64,000 bases of DNA from Clostridiales bacterium. GTDB taxonomy: Bacteria > Bacillota > Clostridia > Christensenellales > CAG-314. Shown piece after piece: positions 1-9,982 of this stretch (position 1 is the first letter of the stretch; each line of letters starts with the position of its first letter). Under the pieces are notes generated by a model. That model was not told the DNA's origin, searched no databases, and saw only the letters and a list, made by a program, of their open reading frames with translations. The DNA lies in NCBI GenBank assembly GCA_022508345.1, contig JAFLVK010000001.1, positions 597,841 through 661,840 of the forward strand, written 5' to 3'. Position numbers and translations under genes: made by a program.

Positions 1-2301
1 CACTGGTACAATTACGGCCTGACGGACAGTTTCGCGCGTTACCAAATAATGAAAGGCAAAAACGTATTTCAGCCCATGGGCTTTGACGCGTTCGGCTTGC
101 CTGCGGAAAACTACGCGATAAAAACAGGCGTTCACCCCGAGGATTCAACTCTCCACAACATCGAGGTAATGGAGACCCAGCTCAAAAACATCGGCGCAAT
201 GTTCGATTGGGATCACGAGATAAAAACTTGTCTGCCCGAGTACTACCGTTGGACGCAGTGGATATTTGCCGAGCTGTTCAAGCGCGGGCTGGCGTATCGC
301 AAAAAGGCGCCCGTCAACTGGTGTCCCAGCTGTAATACGGTGCTTGCCAATGAGCAGGTAGTGGACGGTCACTGCGAACGCTGCGACAGCCAGGTAGTGA
401 AAAAGGACTTGACGCAATGGTTCTTTAAAATTACCGACTACGCAGAGGAGCTGCTTCAAGGCTTGGACAACCTGGATTGGCCGGAAAAGACCAAGGCTAT
501 GCAACGCAACTGGATTGGCAAGAGCACCGGCGGCGAAATTGTCTTTGACCTGGCATACAGAAAGGACAGCAAGAAAAAGGGCAGCTTTAAGGTGTTTACC
601 ACGCGCGCAGATACGTTGTTCGGTTGTACCTACGTAGTACTTGCGCCCGAGCATGAGTTGGTGGCAAAAATAACCACACCCAAGCACAAGGCTGAAGTGC
701 AAGCATATATTGAAGAAGTTGCAAAGACCAATGAAATCGAACGTCTGTCCACCGCGAAAGAGAAAACAGGTGTGTTTACAGGTGCTTATGCAATCAACCC
801 CATCAACGGCGAAAAGGTGCAGGTGTGGATAGGCGATTACGTACTTGCCAGCTACGGCACAGGCGCTGTTATGGGTGTTCCGTCGCATGACGCACGCGAC
901 TACAAGTTTGCAGTAAAACACGGCTTGAAAATCAAGCGCGTAATCAAGGGCGCAACGGCTGACGTAGACGACAGCTTGCCTTTCTGCGAATACGGCGTAA
1001 TGGTAAACAGTGGCGAATTCGACGGCATGGCAAGTGAAGAGGGCAAGGTCGCCGTAGTGGAAAAGCTGGCTGGCATGGGCAAAGGTGAGTTGAAAACAAA
1101 CTACCGTTTGCGCGATTGGCTTGTATCCCGTCAGCGTTACTGGGGCGCACCTATCCCCATCATTCACTGCCCGCACTGTGGCGAAGTGCTTGACGAGAAC
1201 CTGCCCGTAAGGTTACCCTACGACGTGGAATTCCGCCCCGACGGTACAAGTCCGCTTGCTAAACACGACAAGTTCATACATGACGTCAAGTGTCCCAAGT
1301 GCGGTGCTGCCGCTCAACGCGACCCCGACACGCTGGATACATTTGTGTGCAGCAGCTGGTACTACCTGCGTTATCCCGATGCCAACAACAGCGACAAGCC
1401 ATTCGACACCGAGTGGATAGACAAGATGCTGCCCGTTGACAAATACGTCGGCGGTGCAGAGCACGCATGCATGCACCTGCTGTACGCGCGCTTCATTACC
1501 AAGGCGCTGCGCGACATGGGTTATCTGCATTTCGACGAGCCCTTCAAGTCGCTTGTTCACCAAGGCGTAATTTTGGGTCCGGACGGCAACCGCATGAGTA
1601 AATCTCACGGCAATGTTGTTTCCCCCGACGATTACGTCAACACTTACGGCGCGGATGTGTTCAGGTGTTACTTGGCGTTTGGCTTCCGTTACATCGAGGG
1701 CGGTCCGTGGTCGGAGGACGGTATCAAGGCAATCAACAAGTGGCTGGACAGAGTGGAAAGATACTACCTCACAGCCTATGGCGAATATCCCACTACCGAC
1801 AGCATGGGCAAGGAGGAAAAAGAGCTCAACCGAGTGCGCCACGCAACAATCAAGGCAGTGGACGCCGACTATCAGGAATTCTCATTCAATACAGCTGTTG
1901 CCCGCATGATGGAGCTTGTAAACGCCATTGCCAAGTACGATCAATTGCCCGTCAAGAACATGGCGTTGTATCGCGCAACAGTAGACGATTTGCTGAAATT
2001 GCTTTGCCCGCTTGCTCCGCATTTCACGGAAGAACTGTGGAGTTCCACAGGACACAGCGGTAGCATAGTGGTTTCCGCATTCCCCACCTACGACGAGGCT
2101 GCGTTAAAGGTTGCCGAGACGGAAATTCTTGTGCAATTTAACAGCCGTCCCAAGGTGCGCTTGACGGTAGATGCGACATTAACCCCTGCCCAGCTGGAAC
2201 AAGAAATCCTTACAGATGCGCAGGTTGTACAGGCCCTTGCAGGCGCAACGCCCAAAAAAGTTATAGTTATACCCGGCAGATTAGTGAATATAATTGTGTA
2301 A
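1..2301 (+). CDS. leuS: leucine--tRNA ligase, 5' end cut by window edge
   Basis: Frame is open from nt 1 ([19 protein letters not shown]...). LeuRS hallmarks: [19 protein letters not shown], zinc-type CPSC..CERC, KMSKS region as NRMSKSHGN. Confidence 0.95.
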
Positions 2302-5805: not shown

Positions 5806-6423
5806 ATGATTTACAACGCATACGAAATATTGGGCTTAACTGAATCTGCTACAATGGAGGAAGTGGAAGCCCGCTATCAGGAGCTGCGCGCTAAATTGCA
5901 ACGCGACAGATTTCTGCCCGGCGACGAGGGTGAAGAAGCATCGGAAAAGCTTCAACAGCTGGAAGTAGCCTACCGCGACATCAAGCTGCAGCAGGAAGAG
6001 CAGCAACAGACGGAAAAGTTCACTGAGGACGCCGACTACAAAACAATTCAGGAGCTGGTAACATCCGGCAATCTGGACGAAGCGCAAAAGCTACTGGACG
6101 AACGCACAACTCGCGATGCCGAGTGGCACTACATTCAGTCCATACTGTTTTACAAGCGCAATTGGTTTTTGGAAAGCAAAACTCAGTTGGAGCTTGCCTG
6201 TCAGATGGAGCCGGACAACATCCGCTACAAGCAAAGCCTGGAAAAGCTGACGAAAATACTTGCCAGCAATACAATCAGCCCCGATCAACTGCGCACCGGT
6301 TCACGCCCTGTGGACGGTGAGCAACAGTACGGTTACGGCAACGGCTCTTGCACAGGCAGCAACTGTCTTGACTGTTTGCTGTGCAACATGTGCTGTAACT
6401 GCTGTATGCGTGGTGGCTGTTAA
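5806..6423 (+). CDS. J-domain-like protein lacking HPD, with TPR-like middle and Cys-rich C-terminal tail
   Basis: 205 aa. N-terminus YEILGL..EEVEARYQELRAKL resembles J-domain helices, but the HPD position reads QRDRF. Tail is GSCTGSNCLDCLLCNMCCNCCMRGGC. Confidence 0.55.
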   Translation: MIYNAYEILGLTESATMEEVEARYQELRAKLQRDRFLPGDEGEEASEKLQQLEVAYRDIKLQQEEQQQTEKFTEDADYKTIQELVTSGNLDEAQKLLDERTTRDAEWHYIQSILFYKRNWFLESKTQLELACQMEPDNIRYKQSLEKLTKILASNTISPDQLRTGSRPVDGEQQYGYGNGSCTGSNCLDCLLCNMCCNCCMRGGC

Positions 6424-7058
6424 TGAACAAAGCAAAGCTAATTGCTACAAGCGCAGTGTGCAGCGCGGTGGCGGCAGTGTGCTTGCTACTTGCAAGCGTG
6501 TTTCCCTACGGCGTGCTGGTTTACGCTGTGATAGCATCCATAGCGGTGGCAATGCCGTTGCTGATTGACGGACGGAACTTGACATACTCGCTATTGGTGT
6601 ATGCCGCAAGCCTGGTGGTGGGTGCTCTTAGCGGAACGCTAATCGGAAATATAATATCCGTTGCGCCCATTGTAATTTTTTGCTTGCCATTTGCTATCGT
6701 CAAGGTGTACGGCGAAACACTCAAGGTGACTGCAAGGGTGGAGCACACCGAAACGCTGGAAGACCCATTCGGACAGGGAGACGACAGGCAGGTTGTGGCA
6801 GTGCAATTCAACGGAGAAAAGCGCTTGCCAACTGCCGTTAAATGGATACTTTACTACGTACTGCTGGAGTTGGGTGTAGGACTGACGTTGCTTGTAACCT
6901 ATTACCTTACGCCCACGGTTATCGAAAGGGTGTACAGTACGGAATGGCTGTTTTGGTTGCTTGTTGCAGCGGCGCAGCTGATTGTTCCGCTGTACGACCT
7001 GCTACTGCACGGTTGCCTTATCGGCGCAGTTAAAGCAATGAAAAGAGTTATCAAGTAG
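6423..7058 (+). CDS. polytopic membrane protein, function unknown
   Basis: 211 aa. ATG overlaps the upstream stop (TAATG). Several hydrophobic spans flank a charged central loop. Confidence 0.6.
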   Translation: MNKAKLIATSAVCSAVAAVCLLLASVFPYGVLVYAVIASIAVAMPLLIDGRNLTYSLLVYAASLVVGALSGTLIGNIISVAPIVIFCLPFAIVKVYGETLKVTARVEHTETLEDPFGQGDDRQVVAVQFNGEKRLPTAVKWILYYVLLELGVGLTLLVTYYLTPTVIERVYSTEWLFWLLVAAAQLIVPLYDLLLHGCLIGAVKAMKRVIK

Positions 7059-7157
7059 TCGATTTTGCGTTTAGTGGCGTAAAACTGTTGACAAAATGGA
7101 TAAATTGAGTTATTATAGTCAAGCATTGAAGAGATGAGCTCAGTGCCAATTTAATAT

Positions 7158-7235
7158 CGCGGGGTAGAGCAGTCCGGTAGCTCATCGGGCTCATAACCCG
7201 AAGGTCGTGTGGTTCAAATCCCGCCCCCGCAACCA
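7158..7235 (+). tRNA. initiator tRNA-Met (CAU), CCA encoded
   Basis: Cloverleaf readable by eye. C1:A72 mismatch (cgcgggg/ccccgca) and three G-C pairs closing the anticodon stem (tcggg CTCATAA cccga), both initiator hallmarks. The 5' T-stem strand has 6 nt (gtgtgg) against 5 (cccgc). Confidence 0.85.
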
Positions 7236-7240
7236 GTGAA

Positions 7241-7270
7241 AGTACCAAGTTGAAGCTTGGTACTTTTTTT
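7241..7270 (+). terminator. intrinsic terminator after tRNA-fMet
   Basis: 9-bp stem agtaccaag/cttggtact followed by T7. Confidence 0.8.
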
Positions 7271-7287
7271 GACTGCTCTACCCCGCG
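7271..7287 (-). repeat. perfect inverted copy of tRNA-fMet nt 1-17
   Basis: gactgctctaccccgcg is the reverse complement of 7158-7174 (17/17). Confidence 0.95.
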
Positions 7288-7299
7288 ATGCAGAAGTGT

Positions 7300-7510
7300 G
7301 AGCAGTCCGGTAGCTCCTCAGCCGAGGCACAACGTGCCGACCGCCACGAGCGAAGCGAGTATCGGGCTCCTCAGCCGAGCGCGAAGCGCGACCGCCACGG
7401 AGCGTAAGCGGAGTATAACCCGAAGGTCGTGTGGTGACGGAATTGATTGCGTAGCAAATCCAATTCCGTCGCAACATCGTTGCCTCTTGCAAATCCCGCC
7501 CCCGCAACCA
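7300..7510 (+). pseudogene. tRNA-fMet-derived mosaic (pseudo-tRNA or tRNA-like structured RNA) with three insertions
   Basis: 7300-7316, 7361-7369, 7415-7435 and 7491-7510 are identical to tRNA segments 7167-7183, 7184-7192, 7193-7213 and 7216-7235. Insertions lie at 7317-7360, 7370-7414 and 7436-7490. Confidence 0.8.
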
Positions 7511-7511
7511 A

Positions 7512-7556
7512 TTAATTGACCCCTCAACCTTAAATATGACTGAGGGGCTAATTAAT
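7512..7556 (-). terminator. hairpin downstream of the DUF262 gene (weak terminator / islet boundary)
   Basis: cccctca/tgagggg stem inside an imperfect 16-bp inverted repeat (attaattgacccctca / tgaggggctaattaat). There is no strong T-run. Confidence 0.4.
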
Positions 7557-7565
7557 ATTTACATT

Positions 7566-9665
7566 CTATTCCGAAAATACCTCTATAGAAAATTTATCTA
7601 ATAAATTAAACATTTCAGAGATTTGCCGTGCATAAAATCTTGCTCTTTCTGCACTCAAACAACCTTCTACAAATATTTGTGTATTATCTACTTCGCGCGC
7701 GTCAATTACTTTTTCTCTATCAAAGGTAATGATTGGATCTTTACCTATTGGGTTTCTGCTGGATGTAGCTTTATGTATTGTATGACTCTTTGCTATTTTT
7801 TTGAATAATACCTGATTACTCTTATTGAGTATTTTACAAACCTCTAATAAAAGATCACGCCAAGTATCCACAGGAATTGGTGTACCATCATATATAAGAT
7901 ATTTGATTGATGTACCTGTCACTGAAATATCTAAATCTGATAAAGCGTAAACTCCATTAAAGCTACCATTCTTGCTTTTTGATTGATATTTTCTCTCTCT
8001 TACTAGAGGTGCAGTAATAGCTATACATAATCTATCAGAAACATCGTCATTTCTTTCTTTTATCTGTAATTCTGTCCAATCAGAGTAACTCGAAGCTATT
8101 TCAGATGTAACCGCAAACTGAACGGATTTTAAGTTCTTAATTTTATCTGCCCAAGGTTTATTAGAATTTTTGGAATTATATCCTTGTGATATTGGAGCCA
8201 GATTTCCTATACAGTTAAGGTAATGTTCATAAATTCTATCGGCTTCTAGCTCTCCGCCCAGATTATTAATCCACCAGTCGGTTAGCGTTTGTGGCATCAA
8301 ATGCTCGGTAGTAACTTCATCAATTGGAACAGGAATATTTTTTGTTTCGTATTCTTCTAATTTTAACAAAGCAACGCGCGCATACGGTATGTCGATATGT
8401 TCCATAAGTGCTTGTTTAAATTCGGCATTATCTGGATAACGTCCAGAGGGATTAGCGCTGTTAGAAAGCTCGTAAAGAATTGAATCGTACTCTAAAGGTA
8501 TCTCTCCATTGTTTAGTAGTTCAAGTAAGTTTTGTATGACTGAACGTAAAGCCCCTCCACCACCAGATGGCGAAACAACACGATAGCGCAACATAAAATC
8601 TGATAAAAGATTTAATATTTTGTAGAGTTTACTTTTATCTTTGTCATACAATTTGTTGAACAAATACAAGTACAATGGATATAGGTCATTTGTCTTTAAA
8701 CAATTCAAGTATTTTATTGCATGGTTAAGTTTTTTTGTGGGGCAAGTTTCATTGATAAACCATTCATAATACTTTGATAAGTGATACATTTCCTTCAGAA
8801 TATCCAAATGTGCTGTTCCCGTAGAGTCAAAATGTTCACGGAATGTTTTATATATTTTGTCTCGAGGTATATCACTAAATAGATTTAATATTAGATAGTC
8901 TCTTGCGAACCGTGATATATTGTCATTTTGTATGGTTTGTTCTATCTTGAGCCAATAATCTGTATACAGTAAATCTTGTTCTGTAGATGTGTTAGCCAAT
9001 AATAAATAATTTCGTATCAAATCAGCAGGTTCTAATTGCTTGCCTGTCGAGTTTATCTTTTCAAAAACAGTTTGTACCTTGCTTAAGTCATTGTCAATTT
9101 GTAAATTTACGTCAACGATCTCAAACTTGGCTAATGTGTCGTACAAATCTTGAATTGAAACCTTTGATTCTATTATGCGAGTTTTAAAATACTCGAAATT
9201 AAGAATTGTGTTGTTCTTTTCGTTAGATGTTTGACCATTAATTATCCCAACAAAACAATCAGAATCATATGCTGTTTGCTTTAGTCTTATCCTGTACTTT
9301 TCGTTTTGAGTGCGATTAGTCAAAAAATCAGCAATAATATTCTGACGAATTTCATCGTTATCAGTTAAATCTCTTAATGCGCATAATAAAAGTAGTATGG
9401 TTGTTATTCTTTGTTGTCCATCAACAAGAATATATTCTTGAAAAGTTGCGCCGCTGTTTTGACCTAAGTAATAAACTATATTACCAAGATAATGTGATTT
9501 TTTGTTCTTATATGTTTGGAGTAAGTCATTAAATAACTCTTCACATTGTTGAGTATTCCACTCATAGTTCCTTTGAAAAGGTGGAATAATAAATACTTTG
9601 TTTCTGCCAGAAATAAAATCTAAAATATTAACATCGCTAGCTTTCATAAACGTCTCCTTTTTCAT
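7566..9665 (-). CDS. DUF262/DUF1524 (GmrSD-like, ParB-type NTPase + His-Me nuclease) protein with an extra C-terminal domain
   Basis: 699 aa. N-terminal FIIPPFQRNYEW and LVDGQQRITT (DUF262). Central EHLMPQ...IGNL...NSKNSN (DUF1524/HNH-like). About 170 aa of unassigned C-terminus. Clearly AT-richer than its neighbours. Confidence 0.75.
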   Translation of the reverse strand: MKKETFMKASDVNILDFISGRNKVFIIPPFQRNYEWNTQQCEELFNDLLQTYKNKKSHYLGNIVYYLGQNSGATFQEYILVDGQQRITTILLLLCALRDLTDNDEIRQNIIADFLTNRTQNEKYRIRLKQTAYDSDCFVGIINGQTSNEKNNTILNFEYFKTRIIESKVSIQDLYDTLAKFEIVDVNLQIDNDLSKVQTVFEKINSTGKQLEPADLIRNYLLLANTSTEQDLLYTDYWLKIEQTIQNDNISRFARDYLILNLFSDIPRDKIYKTFREHFDSTGTAHLDILKEMYHLSKYYEWFINETCPTKKLNHAIKYLNCLKTNDLYPLYLYLFNKLYDKDKSKLYKILNLLSDFMLRYRVVSPSGGGGALRSVIQNLLELLNNGEIPLEYDSILYELSNSANPSGRYPDNAEFKQALMEHIDIPYARVALLKLEEYETKNIPVPIDEVTTEHLMPQTLTDWWINNLGGELEADRIYEHYLNCIGNLAPISQGYNSKNSNKPWADKIKNLKSVQFAVTSEIASSYSDWTELQIKERNDDVSDRLCIAITAPLVRERKYQSKSKNGSFNGVYALSDLDISVTGTSIKYLIYDGTPIPVDTWRDLLLEVCKILNKSNQVLFKKIAKSHTIHKATSSRNPIGKDPIITFDREKVIDAREVDNTQIFVEGCLSAERARFYARQISEMFNLLDKFSIEVFSE

Positions 9666-9982
9666 TGGTTAATTGATTTTATTATATCACAAACTTACCA
9701 GAAGGTCTACAAGTATATTTTCTTTAATGGCTAAACAAAGTAGTGTTTAATAATGTATATATATAATATTATTTTGAAGATGAAGACTAATTATTTTTAT
9801 CCTAGGCTGCTTATTATATAGAAACTGTACCATACCATTGAAATAGTGTGGCGCGCTGACTGCATCAGATTTTACAGGCTGTTCTTTCTTTCAAATTTTG
9901 TCTATTTCAGGATTTATGTCCGTGAGTATTATGTAATTTAGTTCAATTAGTGGTATAATAGAATAAGTAACGGAGGTTAATT

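Follow-up and report, generated by a model that had tools for sequence, protein, structure and literature searches.

Within the 64,000-nucleotide (nt) stretch analysed here (the window; Clostridiales contig JAFLVK010000001.1, positions 597,841 to 661,840), an intact initiator tRNA gene, tRNA-fMet, is followed by a mosaic of tRNA-fMet pieces separated by structured insertions. We consider it probable that this mosaic arose by tandem duplication of tRNA-fMet and its terminator, as the second, non-functional copy, which small hairpin elements then invaded. The mosaic is a silent tandem pseudogene: the terminator of the working gene precedes it, and a promoter of its own was not found. Small hairpin-forming insertion elements of at least three families have landed in it, and one of these, a 44-nt family denoted EL, displays seamless, site-preferring gain, nesting and loss. 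The interest lies in the EL family and its homing into tRNA loops, the fMet mosaic itself being probably junk that serves no cellular function.

A preliminary description of this stretch reported four blocks identical to tRNA-fMet, in tRNA order, between 7300 and 7510; BLAST and repeat analysis bear this out. The mosaic and the inverted repeat upstream of it are composed as follows.

7300-7316, plus strand: block 1, tRNA linear nt 10-26 (D arm); BLAST 17/17, repeat D3.
7317-7360, plus strand: insertion 1 (Ins1), EL copy 1, 44 nt, at GCTC^AT (tRNA 25/26); pattern match and nhmmer.
7361-7369, plus strand: block 2, tRNA nt 27-35 (5′ anticodon stem through C34); repeat D4 (first 9 nt).
7370-7414, plus strand: Ins2, EL copy 2, 45 nt, at GCTC^AT in the anticodon (34/35); pattern match.
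7415-7435, plus strand: block 3, tRNA nt 36-56; BLAST 21/21.
7436-7489, plus strand: Ins3, a 54-nt double hairpin in the T-loop with one base replaced; fold and orthologues.
7490-7510, plus strand: block 4, tRNA nt 58-78 with CCA, holding the empty site of Ins4; BLAST 21/21.
7271-7289, minus strand: inverted 19-nt copy of 'AT' plus tRNA nt 1-17; repeat I1, 19/19 complementary to 7156-7174.

Ins1 and Ins2 have the pattern CTCAGCCGAG-hairpin-GACCGCCACG in common, and in gapped form this occurs at two places in the 64 kb, namely these two (0.00 expected from 100 shuffles). They are indeed paralogous, both lying exactly between GCTC and AT and carrying the hairpins first described for them, and deletion of either gives back the exact tRNA sequence without any repeated bases. 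The proposal that Ins1 is a recent local duplicate of Ins2 was rejected: both hairpins differ, identity is approximately 70% by reading, and one tandem duplication cannot yield the observed order. The status of Ins3 as a hairpin-bearing insertion likewise stands, its RNA fold reaching −21.7 kcal/mol (z = −5.2), while its extent has been corrected from 55 nt replacing two bases to 54 nt (7436-7489) replacing one. The 5′ acceptor strand, thought to be simply missing, was found as the perfect inverted 19-nt copy at 7271-7289, which ends 10 nt upstream of the mosaic. Ins4, a 27-28-nt hairpin known from related loci, was sought in the window by nhmmer and not found; the same method gave no further family members of Ins3 or Ins4 among the fetched loci. 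Two open reading frames (ORFs) overlapping the mosaic, 7214-7507 (minus strand) and 7250-7519 (plus strand), were rejected as coding, as they carry frame-shifting indels in the related loci L002 and L128.

The mosaic follows the working copy after a gap of 64 nt, in which the terminator T1 stands. The working unit consists of three features.

7158-7235, plus strand: functional tRNA-fMet; ARAGORN, Rfam RF00005 at 58.9 bits.
7088-7116, plus strand: its promoter, TTGACA-17-TATTAT; sigma-70-like site.
7239-7273, plus strand: T1 terminator, an 11-bp hairpin followed by a T-run; inverted repeat I4 and sequence reading.

The tRNA has a CAU anticodon, a C1-A72 mismatch, an encoded CCA and a bulged U in the T stem, and is the same letter for letter in five related loci (L002, L125, L127, L128 and L233). 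Its promoter, which moves together with it in relatives, is the sole sigma-70-like site detected in 7000-7700, a region in which no such promoter was found for the mosaic. T1, between the two copies, is terminator-like in both its hairpin and its T-run. Removal of all EL copies from the mosaic does not lead ARAGORN to call a tRNA. When 6900-7800 and three EL-bearing loci (L207, L152 and L133) were compared with Rfam 15 up to an E-value of 1, the real tRNA was the only credible match, all others scoring far below gathering thresholds. A third copy of the tRNA 3′ end was not found anywhere in the window.

The origin of the second copy emerges from related loci, taken from contigs that encode the 211-aa upstream neighbour protein of the window or its homologues (identity of that neighbour in brackets, tRNA orientation relative to the window).

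L002 (100%), same orientation: the same mosaic with few point changes, plus Ins4.
L128 (83%), same orientation: tRNA, T1, inverted 19-mer, mosaic and a T1-like hairpin.
L127 (86%), inverted: T1 followed at once by a second copy of full length, its 5′ end in sense orientation (CGCGGGGTAGAGC).
L125 (78%), same orientation: CGCGGGGT alone remains after T1.
L123, L124, L233 and L234 (77-85%), inverted in L123, L124 and L234 and same in L233: tRNA alone.

The states of L127, L128, L002 and L125 identify the mosaic as copy 2 of an old tandem duplication of tRNA plus terminator. The attachment-site (att) scaffold first suspected here thus gives way to a tandem duplicate, full length in L127 and with a second terminator in L128 and L002; in L002 a 221-aa ORF and this second T1 copy stand where the window has a GmrSD gene. 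Ins2 has an orthologue at the same site in L002, L128 and L127, shortened in L128 and extended to 86 nt in L127 through nested 'GA-hairpin-GA' modules. Ins3 is present in the same three loci and shows a compensatory change, GCAAC/GTTGC to GCGAC/GTCGC, and Ins4 is found in all three, in L002 as a 28-nt hairpin in the 3′ acceptor strand. The Ins1 site is an uninterrupted GCTCATCGGG in L127 and L128. Among these mosaics, Ins1 is absent from L127 and L128, and Ins4 from the window only. The inverted 19-mer occurs in L002 and L128, with a normal sense 5′ end at this place in L127; point changes and a deletion affect the anticodon stem and variable region of the mosaic in L128 and L127. From these sequence comparisons we conclude that Ins2, Ins3 and Ins4 are old and Ins1 a later gain at a second GCTC^AT, that Ins4 was lost cleanly in the window strain, and that the 5′ end of the second copy was apparently scrambled in one sub-lineage. 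The second copy itself has been deleted repeatedly, and in L123, L124, L125, L233 and L234 it is presumably either lost or was never present.

The EL consensus reads CTCAGCCGA-hairpin 1-GAACGCCACGA-hairpin 2-GAGT over 44 nt, with Ins1 and Ins2 as members, and corresponds to two 'GA-hairpin-GA' modules placed between conserved single-stranded boxes. Hairpin 1 begins 9 nt from the 5′ end; hairpin 2, a short GC stem with a GNA or GNRA-type loop, tandem G-A brackets and AC/GT closing, stops 4-5 nt from the 3′ end. Shuffled versions of EL fold thermodynamically as well as the element itself (z about 0), so it is covariation only that argues for this structure. Hairpin 1 varies freely in sequence with pairing kept (88% of cells paired): 29 changes are double-sided and 0 one-sided, without G-U intermediates among 150 cells. 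Its covariation score of 0.54 compares with 0.10 in shuffles, is reached by 0/500 of these, and exceeds by far the score of every slid control.

The search for relatives of Ins1 and Ins2 elsewhere, proposed with the preliminary description, revealed a dispersed family, in addition to the insertions kept in relatives of the window. A GTDB-wide pattern scan yielded five real EL loci or species (L005, L027, L055, L087 and L117), all gut Clostridia; the pattern was loose, and most of its 120 matches are chance occurrences in high-GC genomes. A stricter metagenome scan recovered approximately 40 real copies on contigs of gut or rumen-type Clostridia, and the cultured Pumilibacter intestinalis carries 2 copies in 8 kb. 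No Rfam 15 family matched EL. Neither the element nor its tRNA-loop homing was found in Rfam 15 or the searched literature, and the family is apparently unnamed. None of the 31 aligned copies has complementary ends (CTCAGCC... and ...GAGT); lacking terminal inverted repeats as well as target-site duplications, EL is not a classical miniature inverted-repeat transposable element. A hammerhead-like core (CCGA-stem-GAAC) was also considered and rejected. The hammerhead core has U4 and A6 positions, EL lacks their equivalents, and the window copies carry GACC. At three loci, longer variants have hairpin 2 replaced by at least 70 nt of AT-rich sequence (L215, minus strand, 9579-9700; L170, 807-940; L214, minus strand, from 5926), and these may be relatives of a parent element that have lost less of it. 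By eye, the right-hand portion of Ins3 (ATTCCGTCGC..GCTCCTTAC) resembles the right flanks of EL in L133, L205 and L055, the Ins3-like stretches lying at 250-350 in L133, 8780-9020 (minus strand) in L205 and 1-200 (minus strand) in L055; the L205 flank is followed by CAAATC and a tRNA-like 3′ end. On this resemblance, Ins3 would appear to be part of a larger family associated with T-loops, whose left extension of approximately 100 nt is found in both L055 and L205.

Target preference was analysed over 31 distinct pairs of EL flanks. Position +1 is A in 31/31 and +2 is T in 27/31, while −2 is a pyrimidine in all 31 and −1 is G or C in 28; insertion at Y(C/G)^AT is seamless and never accompanied by target duplication. 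Most copies lie in the T-loop at GGTTCG^ATTCC, between tRNA positions 57 and 58. In the main, the T-loops and anticodon loops so occupied are those of tRNA copies or fragments with an intact tRNA of the same kind beside them. Other sites are the fMet anticodon loop, the anticodon stem in L087, position 8/9 of a tRNA-Thr pseudo-copy, in antisense (L137 and L203), and non-tRNA palindromic repeats at GTC^ATTGCGAG (L117, L132 and L158). When EL is removed in silico, tRNA calls return for tRNA-Arg (L152) and tRNA-Thr (L137 and L203), each of these interrupted copies adjoining an intact gene of the same tRNA; at several other loci an intact tRNA stands within approximately 150 nt of the EL site. The interrupted copies at these loci are all truncated or mutated, and their decay beside an intact tRNA points to EL products surviving in dispensable copies only. 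The antisense copies, the non-tRNA repeats, the decayed hosts and the lack of G-U intermediates argue that EL acts at the level of DNA and is not an intron.

Two further observations concern these targets. The palindromic repeats belong to a family, GTCATTGCGAG-hairpin-CG(T/C)GGCAATC, which is abundant in these Clostridia and is itself an EL target at GTC^ATTGCGAG; members were seen in L117 (3660-3960 and, minus strand, 2200-2480) as well as in L132, L158, L187 and L179. L087 holds at 7730-8000 a row of degenerate tRNA-like fragments, two of them with EL at the same anticodon-stem position, and the contig piece ends within this array.

The favoured history of the mosaic would run as follows. 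EL hits would be tolerated without cost in a spare copy that lies beside an intact tRNA of the same kind. The tRNA-derived blocks would be held near-identical through conversion by the adjacent working gene, Ins4 could have been removed in the window strain by conversion or by exact excision, and a short inversion or template switch may have scrambled the 5′ end, with 7271-7289 as its footprint. Our guess is that a hairpin-recognising enzyme of the IS200/IS605 or REP-RAYT type, supplied in trans, transfers EL as single-stranded DNA in a 'peel and paste' onto the loops of extruded tRNA-gene hairpins; viewed on the bottom strand, EL would insert 3′ of ..AT. The resemblance to single-strand systems follows from this bottom-strand position, the Watson-Crick hairpins, the GNA loops, the asymmetric ends and the absence of duplication, and from a size of 44-90 nt that would hardly recombine as double-stranded circles. 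Mini-hairpins of the d(GCGAAGC) type are very stable in DNA, and the GNA loops of EL match this type.

Several results weigh against this history. With identities given for the window lineage versus L128 or L127 unless stated, the tRNA-derived blocks of the mosaic are conserved at 96-97%, far above third codon positions (55-64%), the region upstream of the tRNA and flanking intergenic DNA (50-62%), T1 (61-75%) and Ins3 (69-70%); Ins2 reaches 80% between the window and L128. Gene conversion from the adjacent gene, itself under strong selection, accounts for the conservation of the blocks and may also explain the clean loss of Ins4. The 100% identity of Ins4 between L002 and L128, and 89% between L002 and L127, goes beyond what conversion covers; it favours some function or recent exchange and remains a point on that side. 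In 64 kb nhmmer finds just 2 copies of EL, both in the mosaic, which leaves its activity in this genome putative. Whereas IS200/IS605 elements have a strict target, the 5′ flank of EL shows little conservation. No transposase or recombinase able to move EL was identified, and no Y1/TnpA transposase was seen in the window or the fetched loci with a rough IS200-type probe, a weak test. Finally, a stereotyped layout recurs at no fewer than ten independent loci (among them L139, L142, L152, L153, L171, L191 and L215), and simple insertion into duplicates undergoing decay accounts for it incompletely. The order there is always an intact tRNA, a terminator plus 35-110 nt, 5-10 nt similar to the target's left half, EL, and a tRNA copy running from the insertion point to CCA.

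A more far-reaching reading, which we regard as possible though doubtful, takes EL as an undescribed class of ultra-small (44 nt) structured elements whose seamless insertion is directed at exposed loops of tRNA-shaped DNA or RNA (T-loop 57/58, anticodon 34/35). Such elements would make or mark intact tRNAs accompanied by EL-tagged partial copies and CCA minihelix arrays, and the fMet mosaic would be one product and not mere junk. Two mechanisms fit this reading, hairpin-guided insertion of single-stranded DNA or tRNA-like small RNAs that carry an EL module. Arrays of the kind concerned were observed directly downstream of intact tRNAs at four loci (L207, 1-500; L164, 11780-12100; L145, 9980-10100; L142, minus strand, 6700-7180), as units of 90-180 nt, each a tRNA 3′ part with EL in the T-loop; the tRNA-Gly units form an acceptor plus T-arm minihelix ending in CCA.

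The layout around EL also looks, by its sequence, like attL-element-attR, which would keep an att-type model alive for the loci concerned. Under this model, the mosaic and the EL-bearing tRNA fragments elsewhere would be products of att sites at tRNA genes. EL would then be either a piece of the attP arm of integrase-less miniature elements mobilised in trans or the recombination site itself, and not a transposable unit in its own right. The seven loci named above follow that order, tandem units occur in L207 (at least 5), L164 (3) and L142 (2), with a decayed 5′ copy upstream at some loci, and the sequence left of EL is common to two different tRNA-Arg loci (L142 and L152). Recombinase genes lie close to EL in two cases, a tyrosine integrase at 580 nt (L177) and a serine recombinase at 121 nt (L138), and the GmrSD cassette of the window begins exactly at the CCA of the mosaic, whose 3′ part is free of Ins4. 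At the fMet locus the model does not fit, since the insertions lie within a duplicate of the entire gene and Ins1 came by itself. L127 and L128 have in second place a full-length gene followed by a terminator copy of its own, which indicates a tandem duplication; tRNA sequence borders Ins1 and Ins2 (25/26 and 34/35) on either side, and no other DNA accompanied the gain of Ins1. The mosaic has no integrase beside it, and a second att-like copy of the 3′ end of the tRNA is missing from the window; a search of 2.9 million IMG/VR viral contigs for EL, Ins3 and Ins4 gave only chance or coding matches; and double-strand recombination could not work with circles as small as 44-90 bp. Overall we judge this model unlikely. 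Of the first option in the preliminary description, an att remnant hit repeatedly by a tiny sequence-specific element, the element survives, as the dispersed 44-nt EL family with Ins1 polymorphic, and the att remnant does not.

The second option, a functional tRNA-derived structured RNA (decoy, regulator or mimic) with the insertions as extra arms, appears to us slightly less likely still. Read-through of T1 or transcription of the opposite strand would have to supply such an RNA. The high identity of the blocks and of Ins4 (89-100%) relative to third codon positions speaks for it, as do the self-contained hairpins, every one of which spares the cloverleaf helices, the compensatory changes in Ins3 and in EL hairpin 1, and a terminator-like hairpin after the mosaic in every lineage; the minihelix, EL and CCA arrays of L207 and L164 look like units of a processed RNA. 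Against it, the mosaic stands downstream of the terminator-like T1, and the promoter scan of 7000-7700 yielded nothing for it. The window, L002 and L128 have the 5′ acceptor strand inverted and L127 has it in sense orientation, the anticodon stem and variable region have changed, with a deletion, in L128 and L127, and the number of insertions varies. Moreover, the locus is lost or was never present in L123, L124, L125, L233 and L234, no Rfam family matches, and EL also lies antisense to tRNA copies and in non-tRNA repeats. A decoy or regulator is thus left without direct support by the failure to find a promoter, the scrambled 5′ end and the loss in close relatives.

That the insertions are true tRNA introns, archaeal-type or of a new self-splicing kind, in an expressed split or interrupted gene is scarcely credible: short structured insertions do occur at several positions of one tRNA, many EL copies are sense-oriented in T-loops and the paralogues at different positions recall the intron transposition of Thermoproteales, which yields related introns at different positions, but the host is bacterial (C1-A72 initiator tRNA, bacterial genes), the 5′ acceptor strand is inverted, EL lies antisense in tRNA-Thr copies and inside the anticodon stem in L087, Rfam gives no group I or other ribozyme match, and at the tested loci an intact copy of the same tRNA stands beside the interrupted one. 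An archaeal-type intron was rejected specifically because no helix can be read between the Ins1 or Ins2 junctions that would put the splice sites into bulges of 3 nt separated by 4 bp, the bulge-helix-bulge of such introns, and the mosaic is not otherwise intact. A group I intron was rejected on size (44-54 nt, against a core of >200 nt with P3-P9), on an exon that ends in C and not U, and on the lack of any Rfam intron hit at E<=1.

The mosaic is bordered downstream by a cassette of low GC content.

7511-9894, no strand assigned: swapped cassette directly after the mosaic CCA; GC 30-34%, composition profile.

It comprises a hairpin (7511-7556) and a GmrSD gene (7566-9665, minus strand; Pfam GmrSD_N and GmrSD_C), its single type IV restriction gene. 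The suggestion that the mosaic sits at the edge of a defence islet therefore holds, the adjoining gene being this one GmrSD. The swap falls exactly at the pseudo-tRNA CCA; in L002 the corresponding 6109-6950 holds the membrane ORF of 221 aa and then the second T1. Neither an integrase nor a second att-like repeat was found in the window. The flanking genes (LeuRS, TrpRS, DUF5685 and NrdD) are those of an anaerobic Firmicute chromosome, and no partial copies of tRNA-Ser, tRNA-Arg or tRNA-Thr were seen when sought in the window. The block of tRNA-fMet and promoter, with the mosaic if present, has opposite orientations in closely related lineages, L123, L124, L127 and L234 against the window, L002, L125, L128 and L233, and must have been inverted at least once. 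The same intergenic region contains a repeat family, 'gctcgggtattcgtg...caccctcgc', in L234 (3110-3310) and L127 (1195-1230). The extra bulged U in the T stem of tRNA-fMet (approximately 7205-7227; GUG-U-GG / CCCGC) is kept in all relatives and is surrounded by compensatory changes in L124 (CAUGUGG / CCCAUC); we therefore take it as a real, unusual trait of the initiator tRNA in this clade.

If EL moves alone, it would be among the smallest insertion elements known and would bear on the lower size limit for mobile DNA; a target set in part by the geometry of hairpin loops in tRNA genes would, if true, inform how enzymes acting on single-stranded DNA choose their sites. In metagenome-assembled genomes, mosaics of this kind may be wrongly annotated as split or intron-containing tRNAs or as new non-coding RNAs. 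Spare tRNA copies would serve as landing pads and as junctions for swapped defence cassettes, GmrSD in this case, which is useful for understanding plasticity in uncultured gut Clostridia. With Pumilibacter intestinalis CLA-AA-M10, a cultured carrier of EL, these questions are experimentally tractable.

Among known systems, REP/REPIN sequences are very short, hairpin-forming dispersed repeats mobilised by RAYT transposases (Bertels and Rainey 2011, PMC3116915). EL resembles them in its length class (20-100 nt), in being non-coding, in having neither terminal inverted repeats nor target duplication, in a presumed single-strand movement in trans, and in the combination of conserved single-stranded nucleotides with covarying stems. 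In contrast to REP/REPIN, EL consists of two direct modules and not of a palindrome or inverted doublet, its boxes are unrelated to GTAG-type heads, it prefers tRNA-like hairpin loops, and no RAYT was found (a weak test). Its copy number also seems low, as judged from fragments (2 in the 64-kb window, 2 in 8 kb of Pumilibacter), whereas REP/REPIN reach tens to hundreds of copies per genome. The IS200/IS605 family, whose TnpA works by 'peel and paste' at a strict 4-5-nt target, and its miniature derivatives, the PATEs, share with EL the seamless insertion and loss without duplication, the sub-terminal hairpins and the asymmetric ends, and EL is of a size that would allow movement only as a single strand; ISDra2, of this family, inserts after TTGAT, and EL on the bottom strand likewise 3′ of ..AT. 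EL differs from PATEs in being several times shorter, at 44 nt, and in a target motif of 2-3 nt, the fixed flank being limited to AT on one side; tnpA or tnpB was not seen nearby with the rough probe, nor was a parent insertion sequence with EL ends found in the fetched loci. The small dispersed repeats (SDRs) of cyanobacteria, described by Elhai and colleagues in 2008 and cited in PMC3116915, reportedly insert into one another and so build mosaics. EL is like them in measuring tens of nt and in nesting in its own kind and in other repeats, and unlike them in phylum and sequence; homing into tRNA loops has not been reported for SDRs. Integration at tRNA genes is said (Williams, in 2002) to displace tRNA fragments at attL/attR, with the anticodon loop and the T-loop as classical crossover sublocations. 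The mosaic is likewise a partial tRNA copy beside an intact tRNA, and integrase genes lie near some EL copies, yet it is a whole-gene tandem duplicate with internal insertions and with no integrase or element body between the copies. Finally, the introns of archaeal Thermoproteales and the group I intron of cyanobacterial tRNA-fMet recall the mosaic in their several structured interruptions, the anticodon loop included, and in their related sequences; the mosaic is set apart from them by its bacterial host, by the lack of a bulge-helix-bulge or group I core, by a copy that is otherwise broken, and by an element that also occurs in antisense and outside tRNAs.

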